Below are positions 1,984 through 41,955 of a stretch of 64,000 nucleotides of DNA, piece after piece. Position 1 is the stretch's first letter, and every line of letters begins with the position of its first letter. Both the position numbers and the translations under genes were made by a program. The stretch covers positions 75,108 through 139,107 of the forward strand of contig CAZHTP010000004.1 in NCBI GenBank assembly GCA_964535655.1, in the 5' to 3' direction. The DNA comes from an uncultured Gammaproteobacteria bacterium. GTDB lineage: Bacteria; Patescibacteriota; Microgenomatia; JALYQM01. The notes below the pieces were generated by a model. It was not told where the DNA came from. It made no database searches and was given only the letters and a program-made list of their open reading frames with translations.

Positions 1984-2030
1984 CTTTCTTTTGTCGAGCT
2001 TTGATTAGAAGAGACTTTCTCGCTGAATAC

Positions 2031-2117
2031 TACGCCGACACGCTTAACGCTTCGGCTTCGCCTTGCGTTTAAAGCTCTGCTTCGTCATTTTGGTTTGACG
2101 AAGAAGGTCGTCTAAAG
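2031..2117. repeat. Intergenic structured repeat, copy A (about 80% identical to copy B at 11574-11664)
   Basis: Shared core acgYcgacacgcttaacgcttcg…tgcgttta[ag]aagctc…catt…ggttt…aggtcg. Internal 7-bp hairpin cttcgtc/gacgaag around a 10-nt loop. Confidence 0.5.
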
Positions 2118-2152
2118 TATTTCAGCTTCGAAAGTCTGAGTTATAATAAGCT

Positions 2153-2794
2153 ATGAGATCTTCTGAAGACACTTCAGCAATGTTACAAAAACTGGAAACT
2201 GTGTATGGAGATGTTGAAGCGTTTTTGCATCACAAGTCGCCTTTTCAATTGCTGGTTGCCGTGATTTTATCTGCACAAACCACTGATATTTTAGTTAACA
2301 AAGTAACGCCTGCATTGTTTGAAAAATATCCTGATCCCGCTTCTTTAAAAAATGCTCCCGTAGAGAATGTAACTTTTTTGGTTAACAGGATAAATTATTA
2401 CAAAACTAAAGCAAAAAATTTGATTGGGATGGCAAAGCTTATTGATGAACAGTTTGGAGGGGTGGTTCCGCAAACTATTGAGGAGTTAGTTATATTGCCT
2501 GGAGTGGGGCGTAAAGTTGCTAATGTGATTGTGGGAGATATTTTTAAAAAGCCTCTAGGAATTGTTGTGGATACACATATTAAGCGGGTTTCCTATCGTG
2601 CAGGTTGGACGGAAGCGGTTGATCCGAAGAAAATTGAACAGGATTTAATGCAGCAGTGGCCTTTATCGTATTGGGTGGAAACTCCAAAGCGGATGATTTT
2701 GGTAGGCAGGCAGTATTGTTTTGCAAATAAGCCTCCTGATTGTGGACATTGTCCACTACGAGAGTTGTGTTGGAAACGAATTACTCAATCATAA
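2153..2794 (+). CDS. nth: Endonuclease III (DNA glycosylase/AP lyase)
   Basis: HhH-GPD signature [16 protein letters not shown]-terminal 4Fe-4S cluster motif C-x6-C-x2-C-x5-C ([18 protein letters not shown]). 213 aa. Confidence 0.85.
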
Positions 2795-4871
2795 TCTTTC
2801 CATTTACCACTTCGATATTTACGGTATCTCCTGGTTTTTTACGACCTTCGATAAACTGCAAGGCTACTTCATCGAGGATGGTGGATTCGATTAATCTACG
2901 CAAAGGTCTTGCGCCATATACCGGATCGTAGCCAATTTTGGCAAGCAGCGCTTTAACTTTGTCGGAGATATTCATCTTAAGGTGTTGTTTTTCAAGGCGT
3001 TTGCGAATATCCTCCAGCAGGATATTAACAATTTGTTCAATGTTGTTTTCAGTTAGTTTATTGAAAATAATAATATTATCTAGGCGATTAAGAAATTCCG
3101 GACGGAAAAAGGTTTTAAGTTCGTCTTCCGGAAGGTTGGATGTCATTATGATGAGCGTATTTCTAAAGTCTACTACTCGGCCATTGCCATCGGTTAACCG
3201 ACCATCATCTAATATTTGCAAAAAAACGTTAAACACTTGTTGATGCGCTTTTTCTACCTCATCAAATAGAATTACTGAATATGGACGGCGGTGAACGGCT
3301 TCGGTTAATTGGCCACCTTCTTCGTATCCAACGTAGCCTGGTGGTGCGCCTATTAAACGAGCTACATTGTGCGGTTCGGTGTATTCGGTCATGTCGATAC
3401 GAATTAAGGCACTTTCGTCGTCAAATAGAAATTCTGCAAGTGCTTTGGCTGTTTCTGTTTTACCGACACCAGTTGGACCAAGGAAAAGAAATGATCCGAT
3501 AGGCCGATTAGGTTGAGAAAGTCCGGTGCGTGAACGCCTGATCGCGTTAGCAACTTTATTTAAGGCTTCATTTTGTCCCACTACATGTTTGTGTAGTTCG
3601 CTTTCTAAGTGCTCGAGTTTATGCGATTCAGACATTAATAATTTAGTTAATGGGATACCTGTCCAACGAGAAACAACTTTGGCAACATCTTCGGCGATTA
3701 CTTCTTCGCGCAAGATCCGTTCTTCTTCAGGAATTTTATTCCATTCTATATCTGCTTGTTTTAGTTTTTCTTCAAGCTGCGGGAGTTTCCCATATTGAAT
3801 TTCGGCGGCTTTCTGAAGATCTACTTCGCGTTGTGCTTTTTCTAATTCAGCTTTGGCTTTATCTATGTCTGTTTTTATTTTTTGGATGTCTGAGATGAGG
3901 GCTTTTTGTTTTAACCACCGTTTTTCCATAGCATTGGCATTTTCTTTAAGTGAAAGTAACTCAGCAGCGATATATGTTGAGCGTTCCTTAGCGTTTTCGG
4001 TTTTTTCTTTTTTTAGTGCGGCTTGTTCAATCTCTAGCTGGATCATTTTACGTTTCATAGTGTCTAACTCAATCGGCATAGATTGTGTTTCTATTTTTAG
4101 AGCGCTTGTCGCCTCGTCGATAAGGTCGACGGCTTTATCTGGCAAAAAACGATCGGTTATATATCTGGTTGAAAGTTCAACGGATGCTATTAAGGCGTCG
4201 TCGGTAATACGTATTCCGTGGTGTAATTCATATTTTTCTTTGATTCCACGTAATATAGTTATGGAATCTTCGGCTGATGGTTCATCAACAAAAACTGGCT
4301 GGAATCTTCGTTCCAGAGCCTGATCTTTTTCTATGTATTGTCGATATTCCTTGACGGTTGTGGCGCCGATACAGCGTAATTGGCCACGTGCAAGCGCTGG
4401 CTTTAGAATATTTGCAGCATCCATGGCACCTTCTCCGCCGTTTCCTGCACCAACCAAAATATGTAATTCATCGATAAAAAGTATGTACTGGTCAGGCTTT
4501 TTCTCAATCGCTTTAACGATATTTTTAATTCTTTCTTCAAATTCGCCACGATATTTTGCGCCAGCAAGAACCATCGCAATATCTAAAACTAAGAGGTCTT
4601 TGCTTTGCAGTGTTTCTGGGACATCCTTGGAAACAATTCGTTGAGCAAGTCCCTCCACGATTGCGGTTTTTCCAACGCCTGGATCGCCTATAAGGACTGG
4701 GTTGTTTTTAGTTCGCCGTGAGAGTACTTGCATAAGGCGGCGTACCTCTTCGTTTCTGCCTATAACAGGATCAAGTTTTCCGCTTTTTGCATCATTAGTT
4801 AGATTGTGCGTGAATTTTTGCAAGGCATTCTCGCGGCCGTCGTCATAGTCTGGTGGAAGGTTAGTGTTCAT
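2781..4871 (-). CDS. clpB: ClpB-type AAA+ disaggregase lacking the N-terminal domain
   Basis: Two Walker A boxes (GDPGVGKT and GPTGVGKTE). A long coiled-coil middle domain lies between the NBDs ([21 protein letters not shown]…), which is ClpB-specific. Only 696 aa, so no N-domain. Confidence 0.85.
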
Positions 4872-5046
4872 ATATATTTACTTTATTTTGAAGAATTTGC
4901 TGCTCGAAAATTTGAAGTTTAAGGTTTCCTACCTTTTAGTTTTTTTGCTCTCGGGCTTTGCATAAGTGAATCCAGGACGGATGCAAATTTTCTGCGCTAC
5001 AAAATTCTCCAAAATCTGAATAATTAAAAATATTATAGAATATTTT

Positions 5047-5080
5047 GTCAAATTTGGCAATCTCCTATTCTGAGTGCTAA
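5047..5080. promoter_or_regulatory. Putative heat-shock operator upstream of clpB (CIRCE-like inverted repeat, overlapping a CtsR-like GTCAAA element)
   Basis: TTGGCAATC-N9-GAGTGCTAA at 5054-5080 matches CIRCE (TTAGCACTC-N9-GAGTGCTAA) in 16 of 18 positions with the exact 9-nt spacer. The overlapping tGTCAAAtttGGCAAt at 5047-5062 loosely resembles a CtsR heptad repeat. It lies about 185 nt upstream of the clpB start. Confidence 0.3.
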
Positions 5081-10353: not shown

Positions 10354-11556
10354 ATGTATAAACCAAGTGATGAAACGTTGCAGAAATATGCAGACTTGTT
10401 AATTAAATTTGCGTTAGGTGGAGGAAAAGGTGTTAAAAAGGGTGAGGTTGTCTTTATGACAATTCCTGAGTCGGCAAAAGATTTTATTGCCCCTCTTCGT
10501 CGATCGGTGCTTTCTGCTGGTGCTCATCCACTCTTTCACTATCTTCCCGATGATGTTCAGGCGCGCGAATTTTACGAGTTGGCAAATGATTCTCAACTTA
10601 CTTTTTTTGCAGATAAAATGTACCGAGGAATAGTTGAACAAGCTGATCATACACTCCGTATGTTATCTGAATATGATAAATATGAATTTAAGGGTGTGGA
10701 TAGTAAAAAATTAATGAAATATAGTAAAGCACAAAAGCCGTATACCGATTGGAGATTTGAAAAAGAGAATAAAGGGAAATTGACGTGGGTGCTTGCCAGT
10801 TACGGAACAGAGGCAATGGCAAAGGATGTGGGAATGTCGCTTGAAGCGTATTGGGATCAGATTATTAAAGCTTGTTATTTAGATTTAGATGATCCAATTG
10901 CGCGATGGAAGGAGATTTTTAAAGAGCAGGAACGGCTGAAGAAAATACTGAGTGATATGAAAATTGAACAGTTACATGTTGAGGGCGAGCGTACTGATTT
11001 GTGGATTAAACTTGGGGCAACACGGAAATGGCTTGGTGGATCTGGGCGTAATATTCCTTCTTTTGAACTTTTTGTCTCGCCCGACTGGCGTGGTACTAAC
11101 GGGAAAATATATTTTAATCAGCCATTGTATCGGTATGGTAATAGGATCAGGGATATAACTTTGCAGTTTAAAGATGGGGTAATAGTTGAAGCAACAGCAA
11201 GTGAAAATCAACAGTTATTGCGAGATATGATCGCTGTTGCTAACGCGGATAAAATCGGTGAATATTCGTTAACCGACGGTAGAATGTCTCGCATTACCCG
11301 TTTGATGGGTGAGACATTGTTTGATGAAAATTTTGGTGGAGAGCAGGGTAATACTCACTTAGCGGTGGGAATGGCCTATAAGGATTCGTATGTTGGAGAG
11401 ATGGCGCTGGTAACTCCAGAAGAATGGAGTGAGATGGGGTTTAACGATAGTGCTATTCATACGGATATTATTTCTACTGAGAAACGAACTGTAACGGCAA
11501 CTTTGCCTGATGGGTCGATAAAGGTTATCTATACTGATGGAAAATTTGTAGTTTAA
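10354..11556 (+). CDS. Aminopeptidase, M29 (AmpS/PepS/aminopeptidase T) family
   Basis: 400 aa. N-terminus MYKPSDETLQKYADLLIKFALGGGKGVKKGEVV matches the M29 family start. GGAGAG RBS 7 nt upstream. Confidence 0.7.
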   Translation: MYKPSDETLQKYADLLIKFALGGGKGVKKGEVVFMTIPESAKDFIAPLRRSVLSAGAHPLFHYLPDDVQAREFYELANDSQLTFFADKMYRGIVEQADHTLRMLSEYDKYEFKGVDSKKLMKYSKAQKPYTDWRFEKENKGKLTWVLASYGTEAMAKDVGMSLEAYWDQIIKACYLDLDDPIARWKEIFKEQERLKKILSDMKIEQLHVEGERTDLWIKLGATRKWLGGSGRNIPSFELFVSPDWRGTNGKIYFNQPLYRYGNRIRDITLQFKDGVIVEATASENQQLLRDMIAVANADKIGEYSLTDGRMSRITRLMGETLFDENFGGEQGNTHLAVGMAYKDSYVGEMALVTPEEWSEMGFNDSAIHTDIISTEKRTVTATLPDGSIKVIYTDGKFVV

Positions 11557-11573
11557 ATTCCTTTGATATGTTT

Positions 11574-11664
11574 TACGTCGACACGCTTAACGCTTCGCTT
11601 TGCTCTGCGTTTAGAAGCTCCACTCTGCCATTCGCGGTTTGGCAGAGAGGGTCGACTTAAAAAC
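11574..11664. repeat. Intergenic structured repeat, copy B (see copy A at 2031-2117)
   Basis: Same core sequence as copy A. The internal hairpin here is ctctgcc/ggcagag, a different sequence from copy A with preserved pairing. Flanked by the palindrome GTCGAC…GTCGAC. Confidence 0.5.
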
Positions 11665-11678
11665 ATGCTTTCAGGAAT

Positions 11679-12980
11679 TTATATATTGTCTTGAATAGAT
11701 TTCCAAATTTTCTCTACTCCGTGAGGAGATAGTTCTTCGGTTTCGGTGTATGTTTTGTAGTTTTGCATAGCTAGAAATATTCCTGCTTTAAACGCATTGG
11801 TTAAAAATTGTGCGGCTTTAATTGGGTTGACGGGTAGTTGTAACGCTCGCCAGCTATGTGCTTCATTTTTGAACGGACCGGGTGTTAATGGGCATTGCGT
11901 AGTGCAGAGGTATTCGTTTAATTGCTGTTGCCTTTCGTCGTTGGGTAAAAAGCCAAAACGCTTTAAGTAATTAAGATTATCGTATTCCTGACGTCCAACC
12001 GGTTCGGATAAGAGTAAGATTGGACCTCCTATGGTATCCGGGGTTGTTAAAACTTTAAAGCATTGTTCGGATGGCTTGGTTATTTCGAGTGACGGCGGAT
12101 TGAGTTGCTCAAAGAGTTTATCGTAGAGTTGGACTGTTTGAAAATCGTTTGCGCCAATATGAAAAACTACTTCGGGATTATCTCGAAAATACTCTATAAA
12201 CGGCTTAGTGTAATTGCCTTCTCTTGTTGTTATTGAAAATTTAAATTCGCGATGCTTGATTCTAATTTTTTCACTGGTTAATTCGTCGATTAGTGTTTTG
12301 TAATAAGCCAGTTGGACTGCTGCACCGCTTATTGGAATGCTGATTCTCGCTTTTTGTGGGTTTTGGGGTGTTACTTGTTCTACTTTGTTATATAAAATTG
12401 GTGGATCTAGTTTTTGAAAGTATTTTGGGCTAATAGGATATGGAGTAACTACAATATTAGGAACTGAGAGGTGCTCGTCTTTAAATAATGTGTTTAATTT
12501 ATTTTTAGTTTGTTTGCTCGGGACAAAAATAGTATCTGCTTCGACCATCCAAAATCTTTGAGGTGAATCATCGGTTACGATTACAGCATGAAATATCGGG
12601 ATTGGGATTTTTTTATGTCGAATTATACGGGCAATTTTTTGAGCAATAAAAGCGTGCGTAGAGACGATAACTAGTTTGTCAGGATTATCGGTAGCAATTA
12701 TTTTTTGGATCTGATTAATTGTTTCTTCGATTTTTTGCACTTGCATGTAGGTTAGAAGCGGCGTAACTATTTTTTCTGCGGTGGAGTTGGTTTGGGTAAA
12801 TTCCAGTATTTTCCTTAAATAGTAATTAGTGCTGATGAGGTGATAGATAAAAGATATTGATTCGTCCTGAATTCCCATGATGTGAGCATTTGTACCTTCG
12901 GGAAGTCCTGCAAGTAAGGCGTTCGTAACTCTAATATGGCCTAGGCCGGTGGGTGCGGTGGTAATGATTATAGCGGGCAT
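11679..12980 (-). CDS. GT-B fold glycosyltransferase, GT28/MGDG-synthase-like (possible glycolipid synthase)
   Basis: N-terminal glycine-rich TAPTGLGHI resembles the GT28 (MurG/UgtP) G-loop. C-terminal …SEPVGRQEYDNLNYLKRFGF resembles the GT-B donor-binding helix. No exact family match possible by eye. Confidence 0.4.
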   Translation of the reverse strand: MPAIIITTAPTGLGHIRVTNALLAGLPEGTNAHIMGIQDESISFIYHLISTNYYLRKILEFTQTNSTAEKIVTPLLTYMQVQKIEETINQIQKIIATDNPDKLVIVSTHAFIAQKIARIIRHKKIPIPIFHAVIVTDDSPQRFWMVEADTIFVPSKQTKNKLNTLFKDEHLSVPNIVVTPYPISPKYFQKLDPPILYNKVEQVTPQNPQKARISIPISGAAVQLAYYKTLIDELTSEKIRIKHREFKFSITTREGNYTKPFIEYFRDNPEVVFHIGANDFQTVQLYDKLFEQLNPPSLEITKPSEQCFKVLTTPDTIGGPILLLSEPVGRQEYDNLNYLKRFGFLPNDERQQQLNEYLCTTQCPLTPGPFKNEAHSWRALQLPVNPIKAAQFLTNAFKAGIFLAMQNYKTYTETEELSPHGVEKIWKSIQDNI

Positions 12981-22446: not shown

Positions 22447-22447
22447 T

Positions 22448-22741
22448 TTACTTTGGATCGTTGCGAGTGTCACGAGCGCTGAATGCAGGGATGACATCAC
22501 TTAAGGGGATTTTATTTCCTGCACGCGAAGCACTTACTAAACCACGGAATGTTGATTGTACTTGATCAGGAAGTAACTGAGGGTAATTAGGTAACTTAAC
22601 GGCTGAACCGATTGTACCTATAACTACGTTTGAGTCTAATAGCGTTTTATTTTTAAACGCTTCTTGGACTTCGGCGGAAATTATTGGAACGTTATTGAAG
22701 AGGAGTGGCATTGGGTGAGGAGCCGATTTCAAATTCGACAT
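22448..22741 (-). CDS. Hypothetical protein / downstream portion of the frameshifted lipoprotein
   Basis: 97-aa ORF in a different frame. It overlaps the preceding ORF by 50 nt on the same strand. Confidence 0.3.
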   Translation of the reverse strand: MSNLKSAPHPMPLLFNNVPIISAEVQEAFKNKTLLDSNVVIGTIGSAVKLPNYPQLLPDQVQSTFRGLVSASRAGNKIPLSDVIPAFSARDTRNDPK

Positions 22742-23075
22742 CGGCAGTAGTTGCCCTTATTGCTAATCTTTGTTGGTTATCTAATTCTATTAGACCAAAT
22801 AGTATTTTGTGATTGGGGTCTATTTCTGGAGTTGATGTGGCAGCCGGAGTTTTCTCAAGTGGAATTGCTGTGGTGTCAAACAGCCCACGCCTTGGAGTGG
22901 CTGTTGGTTGCTCCTCTCTTGCTACAACTGTGCTATACGTGTCCATATTTATTGGACTTCCACAAGCGGTTAAAGATAAACCGAATAAGAGAATTCTGCC
23001 AGTATGTCGTATCCTTTGCCAATTGGGACTGGTTGTCCTATTTTTTTTAGTGGGCTTTTGCCGTTCAACATTCAT
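22692..23075 (-). CDS. Putative lipoprotein (N-terminal part; may be frameshift-fused with 22448-22741)
   Basis: Start at Met14 of the track ORF (MNVERQKPTKKNRTT…ILLFGLSLTACGS): signal peptide plus lipobox LTAC. Thr/Pro-rich linker follows. Confidence 0.4.
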   Translation of the reverse strand: MNVERQKPTKKNRTTSPNWQRIRHTGRILLFGLSLTACGSPINMDTYSTVVAREEQPTATPRRGLFDTTAIPLEKTPAATSTPEIDPNHKILFGLIELDNQQRLAIRATTADVEFEIGSSPNATPLQ

Positions 23076-23094
23076 GCTGCGTGCATTGTACCAC

Positions 23095-40182: not shown

Positions 40183-41955
40183 ATGACTTTTAAAGAATTA
40201 GCACTGTTTTTCTCAGAGCTTGAATCTACTACTAAGCGGCTTGAGTTAATCGATATTTTATCCCGCTTATTCGTTACTATAAGTACACCCAAAGAAGCAA
40301 AAAAAATAACCTATTTACTTCAAGGTAGGGTAGCGGCTTTCTATGAGCCTATAGAGTTTGGTATGGGTGATCGGTTAATTGAGCGGGCTATCGCTTTGGC
40401 GTATGAAGGTGATGTAGAAGGAGTTCACAACTTGTATGGCAAGCTTGGTGATTTGGGTCTTGCTGCTGAAGAAATGGCGAAAAAAAATGGTAAACACTTA
40501 ATAAGTTTATCTATTGATGAGTTATTTGAACAATTACAAATGGTTACCCGTACAATGGGTGAAGGGGCAGTTGAGGGAAAAGTTGAGGTATTATCACAGA
40601 TATTGCTTCATAGTGATCCGAATGCTGCAAAATTTGTCGTGCGGATTGTCTCTGGGCGGCTACGCCTTGGCATTGGTGATCCAACGGTGCTTGAGGCGCT
40701 TGCCAATGCGCGGTTGGGTGACAGAAAACATCGAAAAGAATTAGAACGTGCTTATAACGAGATTAGTGACCTTGGCCTTATTGCTGAAGCTCTTTGGGAA
40801 TATGAAGGTGATATAGCTTTACGTATCGTTGAAAAAATGACTGTTACGGTAGGTAGACCGCTTCGATCGGAGTTGTGTGAACGACTCCCCAACGCTGAAA
40901 AGACGATAGAGAAAATGGGCGAAGTTGTTTCTCAATTTAAATATGATGGTTTCCGAACACAGATGCATCTTGATAGAAAATCTGGTTTAGTGAAGTTATA
41001 TTCCCGAAATTTAGAGGAGACTACCCATTCTTTCCCCGAGATAACAAAGGGGATTTTGGATCAAGTTGATGCTGATTCAGTTATTCTCGACTCTGAAACA
41101 TTGGCATATCATCCGGAGTCAGAAGAGTTTTTCCCTTTTCAAGAAACTACTAAGCGCCGGAGAAAATATGGCATAGAAGAGATGGCCGAGGAGTTACCCC
41201 TGCGGGCGTTTGTATTTGACATTCTGTATAAGAATGGCGAGTCGCTTGTACAACTTCCTGTACGTGAGCGATTAAAAATACTCGATTCTACTATTAAAAA
41301 AAATGTAGATCCAACTCGCGCTGATACGCTTATTGTCTCAGAGTCGCGTGTTATTTCTGTAGCCAAAGATCTTGGATTGATGTTAGAGGAGGCTCTCACT
41401 AAAGGACTTGAAGGCATTGTTGTTAAGAAAATTGAGTCGTCATACGAAGCTGGTGCACGTAATTTTAACTGGGTAAAACTGAAACATACTGCTTCAGAGC
41501 AATTGAAGGATACAGTTGATTGTGTGGTGTTAGGTTATATTTATGGTCGTGGAAAACGGGTTGCGTTTGGAGTAGGTGCGTTACTTGTTGGTCTTTATGA
41601 TAAAGAGCGCGATGTCTTTGTTTCAGTCTCCAAGATAGGGACCGGATTGACCGATGCTGAATGGGTTTCAATTCGTGAACGATGTGATGCTTTTGTTTCT
41701 AAGGAGAAACCCGCTCGGATTGAATCGGATATTATTCCTTCGGTGTGGGTTGAACCTGAAGTAGTTATCGAAGTGCTGGCAGATGAAATTACTCGATCTC
41801 CCTCACATACTGCAGGAAAAACTACCACTGAACCTGGATATGCTTTACGTTTCCCGCGGCTTGTTACGTTTCGTGACGCCGATAAACGACCAGAAGATGC
41901 TACTAATATCGATGAAATAAAAGAACTATATTCAATGCAGGGAAAGAGGGCGTGA
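40183..41955 (+). CDS. ATP-dependent DNA ligase (archaeal/eukaryotic-type)
   Basis: Adenylation motif I KYDGFR; motif IV EGIVVK; motif V WVKLK; OB-fold C-terminal domain. 590 aa. Confidence 0.8.
   Translation: MTFKELALFFSELESTTKRLELIDILSRLFVTISTPKEAKKITYLLQGRVAAFYEPIEFGMGDRLIERAIALAYEGDVEGVHNLYGKLGDLGLAAEEMAKKNGKHLISLSIDELFEQLQMVTRTMGEGAVEGKVEVLSQILLHSDPNAAKFVVRIVSGRLRLGIGDPTVLEALANARLGDRKHRKELERAYNEISDLGLIAEALWEYEGDIALRIVEKMTVTVGRPLRSELCERLPNAEKTIEKMGEVVSQFKYDGFRTQMHLDRKSGLVKLYSRNLEETTHSFPEITKGILDQVDADSVILDSETLAYHPESEEFFPFQETTKRRRKYGIEEMAEELPLRAFVFDILYKNGESLVQLPVRERLKILDSTIKKNVDPTRADTLIVSESRVISVAKDLGLMLEEALTKGLEGIVVKKIESSYEAGARNFNWVKLKHTASEQLKDTVDCVVLGYIYGRGKRVAFGVGALLVGLYDKERDVFVSVSKIGTGLTDAEWVSIRERCDAFVSKEKPARIESDIIPSVWVEPEVVIEVLADEITRSPSHTAGKTTTEPGYALRFPRLVTFRDADKRPEDATNIDEIKELYSMQGKRA

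Follow-up and report, generated by a model that had tools for sequence, protein, structure and literature searches.

The intergenic spacer between pepF and nth raises the question of what kind of repeated element it holds. A segment at positions 2031–2117 of the window, i.e. the whole 64,000 nucleotide stretch of DNA that was analyzed, had been noted for its similarity to positions 11574–11664 and was thought to be an element of about 90 nt that could be a small RNA, a REP/MITE-like element or a regulatory site. The similarity is real. The two copies, here termed A and B, share an exact 19-mer (CGACACGCTTAACGCTTCG) that is found in the window only at positions 2036 and 11579, and its expected number of matches in 100 dinucleotide shuffles of the window is 0.00 even with three mismatches allowed. 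Alignment of positions 2001–2150 with 11544–11694 displays a mean column identity of 77% over 151 columns. The cores of the two copies (73 and 74 nt) are identical at 58 of 72 positions (81%), and a repeat scan of the window also pairs A with B (pair D3). All motifs quoted in the sequence-only reading as the shared core are found. Its similarity coordinates are right as well, but the size it gave is too small, as the segment is only the tip of a hairpin of about 126–128 nt. The element as a whole, a non-coding repeat of about 130 bases, has not been described before and forms a long hairpin with a conserved forked tip.

The whole hairpin of copy A encompasses positions 2012–2137 (plus strand), as delimited by RNA and DNA folding and by the sequence that is extra relative to the spacers of related genomes. 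The 5′ arm of its variable basal stem (2012–2036, plus) pairs with the 3′ arm (2110–2137, plus), which ends 4 nt before the nth −10 box. Between the arms is the conserved core at 2037–2109 (plus), which consists in order of GAC, AC, P2 (2042–2075), T, P3 (2077–2106, with a GGTTTG loop) and GTC. Copy B encompasses positions 11554–11681 (plus), and its conserved core, GAC...GTC with P2 and P3, is at 11580–11653 (plus), as supported by the covariance model match, the identity and the pair counts. A third full copy, C, is present in a relative and is described below.

The basal stem is formed by AT-rich, imperfect arms of about 26–28 nt each. Within a copy the arms are complementary at 19 of 24 aligned positions in A, 21 of 26 in B and 24 of 31 in C (77–81%); the arms of different copies are no more similar to one another than shuffled sequence. 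The stem closes on the GAC/GTC pairs, beyond which is a conserved three-way junction with the joining strands AC, T and none. P2 displays GCTT/AAGC, a 3′ bulge TA(G), AACGC/GCGTT and a variable tip. P3 displays CY/RG, a 1x1 internal loop and a stem of 7–8 bp, and its loop ends in GGTTTG. The consensus of the conserved tip is GAC-AC-GCTTAA...TTAGAAGC-T-CY...GGTTTG...RG-GTC.

All three full copies fold identically. With RNA parameters the minimum free energy (MFE) of copy A is −47.5 kcal/mol for the plus strand and −50.0 kcal/mol for the minus strand (z −3.9 and −5.0), and with DNA parameters −28.6 and −30.9 kcal/mol (z −4.7 and −5.1). The corresponding values for copy B are −46.9 and −47.4 kcal/mol as RNA (z −5.0 and −7.0) and −28.8 and −30.1 kcal/mol as DNA (z −6.7 and −6.6). 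Both strands are equally foldable, as RNA or as DNA, and no strand is preferred. Covariance model R1 scores copy A at 98.7 bits (E = 3e-24), copy B at 118 bits (E = 1.5e-29) and copy C at 101.5 bits.

For the pair counts, A, B and C were aligned to a model made from B and C only, and the indels of A are thus correctly placed. Over the three full copies, 98.6% of the cells of 24 core pairs are paired. Eight of the 24 pairs are altered on both sides and none on one side only (72 cells). These pairing and covariation values were reached by none of 500 shuffles, and pairing drops to 32–47% in a control where the 3′ partners are slid by 1–3 columns. G-U pairs are absent from the 44 pairs of the MFE fold of A and from the core of every copy; the few in B and C are peripheral or belong to the variable tip of P2, and are not among the 24 core pairs counted. 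A functional RNA with some 45 pairs would normally be expected to contain some G-U pairs as well as some pairs altered on one side only. The Watson-Crick-only compensation, together with the strand symmetry, is the pattern of a DNA hairpin or cruciform. Compensation of this kind may result from selection on the hairpin or from hairpin-templated (quasipalindrome) correction, and REPINs are a precedent for frequent compensatory changes in a mobile DNA hairpin (PMC3116915).

Copy A is in a divergent promoter region, as had been proposed. On one side is the extended −10 box of pepF (TGGTATAAT, 1961–1969, minus), 7 nt before the ATG at 1953, and on the other the −10 box of nth (TATAAT, 2142–2147, plus), 5 nt before the ATG at 2153. 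The pepF start at 1953, which gives a protein of 602 aa, is backed by homologues; the mechanical open reading frame of 612 aa (to 1983) is 10 codons longer. The pepF box is conserved in relatives as TGTTATAAT-N7-ATG. In the window and in five relatives, the start codons of nth and pepF are 5–8 nt past a TATAAT-like box, thus the mRNAs of both genes are probably leaderless. Copy A is between two outward-facing −10 boxes of apparently leaderless genes and therefore is not transcribed from those promoters.

The nth-pepF spacer of the window is about 199 nt long, which is about 150 nt more than in four relatives with spacers of 44–58 nt. These four are empty at this site: L020 (GCA_964403585.1; pepF identity 84%, spacer 46 nt), L023 (81%, 58 nt), L024 (GCA_964462765.1; 78%, 46 nt) and L033 (75%, 44 nt). 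In L025, where pepF identity is 91%, the spacer is 208 nt and contains copy C. Copy C displays the same blocks as A and B, i.e. GACACGCTTAA, TTTAGAAGCTC, GGTTTG and GAAGGTC. Its P2 tip is longer, its P2 and P3 stems co-vary, and its arms are quite different yet again complementary. In the source sample (SRR8893623), copy A contains the ends of two Logan contigs, at 2018 and 2044, whose overlap is only 27 nt; over copy B the contig is unbroken. The contig ends inside copy A could represent allelic variation or another near-identical copy.

The second site is between two convergent genes, an M29 peptidase gene and a gene encoding 433 aa. Their 122-nt spacer in the window is copy B from end to end, and the base of the hairpin overlaps both stop codons, the TAA of the M29 peptidase gene (11554–11556) and the TTA of the 433-aa gene (11679–11681). 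The site is empty in L027, where the genes overlap by 4 nt, and in L028, where they are 23 nt apart. In L023 a 146-aa gene of unknown function (3556–3996) is found in the place of copy B, between the M29 peptidase gene and a 432-aa gene, and tblastn finds no trace of this gene in the window. In L031 (GCA_020050275.1), whose 433-aa protein is 91% identical, the spacer is 41 nt (1788–1828) and has the 3′ part of the element only. This remnant, GGTTTGGCAGAGAAGGTCGACTTAAAAACATG, is identical at 31 of 32 positions to window positions 11636–11667 (plus). The 79 nt that match 11557–11635 are missing from L031; the deletion begins just past the M29 stop codon and ends in the P3 loop. A 37-aa open reading frame (MFLSRPSLPNREWQSGASKRRAKRSVKRVDVKHIKGI, 11554–11667, minus) has been called over copy B in the Logan and NCBI annotations; it is almost certainly spurious, since it forms a singleton cluster and has no counterpart in A or C.

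Both copies are thus lineage-specific insertions that are older than the split from the relatives with about 91% identity, and one of them was later truncated in a relative. Insertion between genes in only the source and its closest relatives makes a small mobile or selfish DNA most likely, and not an RNA gene.

The sequence-only reading had inferred a genome-wide family from two copies in 64 kb. The known set amounts to three full copies and one fragment. In the window, core-motif regular expressions and model R1, filtered or unfiltered, give no other copy, the next best match having E = 0.16, and covariance models find none in about 12 kb more of source DNA or in about 125 kb from relatives. 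The source organism has two copies in about 76 kb (the window, about 10.5 kb of L019 and 1.2 kb of L030). Exact matches to the 18-mer GACACGCTTAACGCTTCG number 6 among genome contigs, 11 among metagenome contigs and 0 among viral contigs; all are chance matches in unrelated, mostly high-GC sequence that lacks any other motif of the element. The 18-mer is too strict a probe, as copy C differs from it at two positions. A degenerate two-block pattern gives one chance match among viral contigs, in a coding region (L026), and BLASTN of copy B against plasmids and phages gives no match.

The source DNA has a G+C content of 38%; Logan run SRR8893623 contains an assembly of the organism as well. Where distant homologues of its genes are named, most belong to Patescibacteria, those of pepF to Nitrospirota and those of the M29 peptidase to Verrucomicrobiota, so that a relation of the lineage to the candidate phyla radiation is possible. 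L029 indicates that the same sample also holds a second related species. The M29 protein of L029 is identical to that of GCA_964462765.1, thus two members of the clade co-occur in SRR8893623.

A self-BLAST for other long hairpins returned only one, in the clpB leader of L020, and it is unrelated to the A/B family. In the window the region upstream of clpB (4872–5079, minus) displays a CIRCE-like inverted repeat (TTAGCACTC-N9-GATTGCCAA) together with a TTGACA/TATAAT promoter, and the leader is about 160 nt long. The layout is the same in L020 (3792–4028), where the leader is 188 nt and contains a long-stemmed hairpin of 135 nt (MFE −51 kcal/mol, z −4.5). Part of this hairpin can be aligned with the leader of the window, and it may be a conserved leader structure. 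ClpB itself (2781–4871, minus) is 696 aa long and begins at position 152 of the ClpB profile, thus the N-terminal domain is lacking; relatives have the same 696-aa form. Elsewhere in the window, positions 22447–23094 display 650 nt without a long open reading frame, with two adjacent minus-strand open reading frames of 97 and 140 aa, perhaps the parts of a single gene that is frameshifted or split. An ATP-dependent DNA ligase of the archaeal/eukaryotic type is encoded at 40183–41955.

Of the identities offered in the sequence-only reading, the REP/MITE-like element fits best. It is favored by the presence or absence and the truncation at orthologous sites, the Watson-Crick-only compensation, the equal folding of both strands and the location of A outside of predicted transcripts. 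We regard copies A and B, with moderate confidence, as a lineage-restricted, REPIN/MITE-like repeat, i.e. a non-coding intergenic DNA hairpin with a conserved tip and free arms. A unit of about 130 nt would have been inserted whole into very short spacers in the ancestor of the source and of the relatives with about 91% identity. It would act and persist as a DNA hairpin, in single-stranded or cruciform DNA, and the conserved three-way-junction tip is probably the part that is recognized by a trans-acting enzyme encoded elsewhere. Candidate enzymes are a transposase or recombinase of the HUH/Y1 type or another structure-specific kind. As the basal stem would need only to pair, its sequence could drift while its complementarity stays, by selection on the hairpin or by quasipalindrome correction.

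The copies within one genome may also swap sequence by gene conversion. A and B are identical at 23 of 24 positions over TACGYCGACACGCTTAACGCTTCG and at only about 70% in the 3′ half; between B and C, identity is about 67% in this 5′ block and about 86% in the 3′ half. This mosaic, which involves few sites, suggests gene conversion between copies. Effects on neighboring genes would be secondary: copy B is a possible bidirectional 3′-end hairpin, and copy A would replace the −35 regions of two promoters.

There are points against the reading as a REPIN/MITE-like repeat. The known set is only three full copies and one fragment. Conserved terminal inverted repeats and a recognizable target-site duplication are both missing from the element, and a transposase, integrase or RAYT-like gene is absent among the window open reading frames of at least 150 aa. 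With its conserved tip and free ends, opposite to the pattern in REPINs and MITEs, the element would offer a cut-and-paste enzyme no conserved ends as cutting sites. The conserved core of A and C has persisted between lineages in which third-codon-position identity is only 64–77%, and the 31/32 identity of the L031 remnant is above expectation for junk DNA; both would also fit a host function.

REPINs are REP doublets that form hairpins and are mobilized by RAYT transposases (Bertels & Rainey 2011, PMC3116915; PMC3337134). Their two inverted REP units are conserved at the ends and the apical spacer is less conserved (PMC3116915). The element resembles REPINs as an extragenic, non-coding sequence of about 100 nt that forms one long hairpin in single-stranded DNA or mRNA, kept by compensatory changes. 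It also resembles them in its persistence in a lineage and in asymmetric partial deletions at orthologous sites; the one-sided loss of copy B in L031, with the 3′ third kept, recalls asymmetric REPIN excisions (PMC3116915). However, it is the ends of REPINs (REP 16–25-mers) that are conserved, whereas the present element has free ends and a conserved three-way junction at its apex. Similarity of the arms between copies is at chance level, and the cores (73–90 nt) are 81–84% identical in all pairwise comparisons of A, B and C, that of A being 81–82% identical to those of B and C. A GTAG-type REP motif is also absent. REPs and REPINs occur in tens to hundreds of copies per genome; of the present element, two are found in about 76 kb of the source.

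MITEs and repeats of the Correia, ERIC, RUP, BOX and RPE types have conserved terminal inverted repeats or a full-length consensus, and MITEs carry target-site duplications. The element is comparable to these in that it is small, non-autonomous, intergenic and hairpin-forming, is present or absent at orthologous sites among relatives, and is tolerated when inserted beside promoters and gene ends. In contrast, its termini are not conserved, the terminal arms of A, B and C being unrelated, and it has no sequence similarity to these repeats and a different, uncultured host lineage. The flanks (A, …TTAGAAG / GAGTTAT…; B, …GTAGTTTAA / TTATATA…) display no direct repeat. The conserved ends of REPINs and MITEs are thus not found in this element, because it is the apical junction that is conserved and the stem that is free.

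Integron attC sites are substrates of about 60–140 nt that are set mainly by the folded single strand and sometimes have branched tips; R and L boxes are conserved at the hairpin base (RYYYAAC...GTTRRRY) and the tip is variable. The likeness is in a recombination substrate defined by structure more than by sequence, in the similar length and in the branched tip. However the polarity is opposite, as it is the base that is conserved in attC, and here a cassette array is absent, as is an integrase from the window. At the hairpin base, copy A reads AGACTTTC/GAAAGTCT and copy B AAATTCC/GGAATTT, which are not attC boxes. HUH stem-loop origins and nick sites are found in rolling-circle replicons and at the ends of IS200/IS605 and IS91. 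They likewise have conserved nucleotides in or near the loop of a sequence-variable stem and act in single-stranded DNA, and they do not need terminal inverted repeats or target duplications. Unlike those sites, the element has no HUH gene nearby and no known nick motif that was recognized, and a three-way junction and a 25-bp basal stem are foreign to them. Without conserved ends, a REP motif, terminal inverted repeats, a target duplication, attC boxes or a nearby transposase, the element cannot be placed in any of the named families.

A bolder proposal, which we consider rather improbable, is that this is the first structure-specified element of reversed polarity or, alternatively, a new class of protein-binding non-coding RNA. 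The sequence-conserved three-way DNA (or RNA) junction would then be a recognition module carried on a stem of about 25 bp that is free in sequence and actively maintained in its pairing. Its user would be an unknown structure-specific recombinase or HUH enzyme in a small-genome, possibly Patescibacteria-related lineage.

A structured RNA is an alternative. This could be a small RNA transcribed on its own, or a cis-acting RNA module now spread over several loci, e.g. a 3′-end hairpin, a stabilizer, a processing site or a protein-binding three-way junction. The fold is strongly conserved, eight pairs are compensated, junction and loop nucleotides are kept, and the core has been retained between genomes whose neutral sites are diverged by about 25–35%. 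Copy B is exactly in the shared 3′ region of convergent genes, with A/T-rich tracts at its stem base. It would therefore be part of transcripts there and might serve as a bidirectional terminator or stabilizer. However, one-sided changes and core G-U pairs are lacking and neither strand is preferred, and A and C are upstream of both flanking −10 boxes and therefore outside of known transcripts. Simple promoter and terminator scans find neither at copy A or B; the short G+C-rich stem and T run of an intrinsic terminator are absent, B having only its A/T-rich stem base. Rfam 15 shows 0 matches at gathering score in the window, and E-value runs on both copies give only noise at E of at least 2; with ARAGORN and Rfam, no tRNA, rRNA or known RNA family is found over the 64 kb. 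The features of an independent small RNA gene are thus not displayed, and the small RNA of the sequence-only reading is without positive support, as an Rfam match, a promoter, a terminator and G-U pairs are all lacking. Absence of the element in four to five related species with the same gene order also implies that it is not an essential RNA. On balance a structured RNA appears unlikely.

The folding symmetry and the Watson-Crick-only compensation are also as a cruciform requires, and the element may be viewed as a host DNA element, i.e. a cruciform or hairpin platform for a structure-specific nucleoid protein, recombinase or regulator. Such a platform would be favored between divergent or convergent genes, where supercoiling is extreme. 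The locations are suggestive, as A is between divergent promoters and B between convergent genes, where transcription-induced supercoiling should be strongest, and the junction sequence is conserved. However, close relatives with the same gene pairs do without the element, and a sister genome carries one copy in truncated form with no evident consequence. Nor was any protein identified as a candidate for binding, and 64 kb contain only two sites. We judge a host element of this kind to be quite improbable.

Conservation between copies is confined to the cores, the arms being unrelated, and in the comparison of C with A and B it ends at or near GAC/GTC. This raises the question of whether the mobile unit is the core only (about 73–90 nt, GAC...GTC), inserted into the loops of existing palindromes, with the stems as host sequence. 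Some IS elements target REP or terminator hairpins, and a 6-bp palindrome is present in the empty 23-nt spacer of L028 at site B. However the empty sites, which range from a 4-nt overlap to 58 nt, are too short for two arms of 26–28 nt (about 54 nt) and show no similarity to the arms. The difference in size between filled and empty sites (about 100–150 nt) is that of the whole hairpin and not of the core alone, and A and B also have in common TACGY upstream of GAC. Insertion of a core alone is thus very unlikely.

Chance similarity or a duplicated gene fragment, for which the small copy number alone could speak, is hardly conceivable in view of the 19-mer, the shared fold (z −3.9 to −7.0), the third copy and the fragment in other genomes, the lack of a conserved reading frame and the empty peptide searches (45-aa frame and 37-aa open reading frame); the gene fragment in particular, which had been named as a possible source of the similarity, is excluded by the absent frame and the hairpin fold.

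Several other identities were considered and rejected. A coding element is not tenable, as no reading frame is conserved among A, B and C, and with regard to open reading frames over the other copies, a search of a 45-aa frame against 1.84 billion representatives gave only repetitive-protein noise. A tRNA-like origin is rejected because ARAGORN finds nothing tRNA-like across the window. A riboswitch or leader does not agree with the location of A upstream of both −10 boxes and of B downstream of both genes. An inverton is rejected in view of the covariation in the internal hairpins P2 and P3 and of arms that match at only about 80%.

If the reading as a REPIN/MITE-like DNA hairpin repeat is true, the element adds a new type to the palindromic intergenic repeats, from an uncultured lineage with small genomes about which little is known. 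Such elements apparently can break assemblies, as with the Logan assembly in which contigs end inside A, and attract spurious open reading frame calls, as with the 37-aa call over B. The element is also a clean small case which illustrates that covariation alone is not proof of a functional RNA, as the hairpin probably is maintained at the DNA level. If many more copies exist, they would provide a handle on the unknown mobilizing enzyme.
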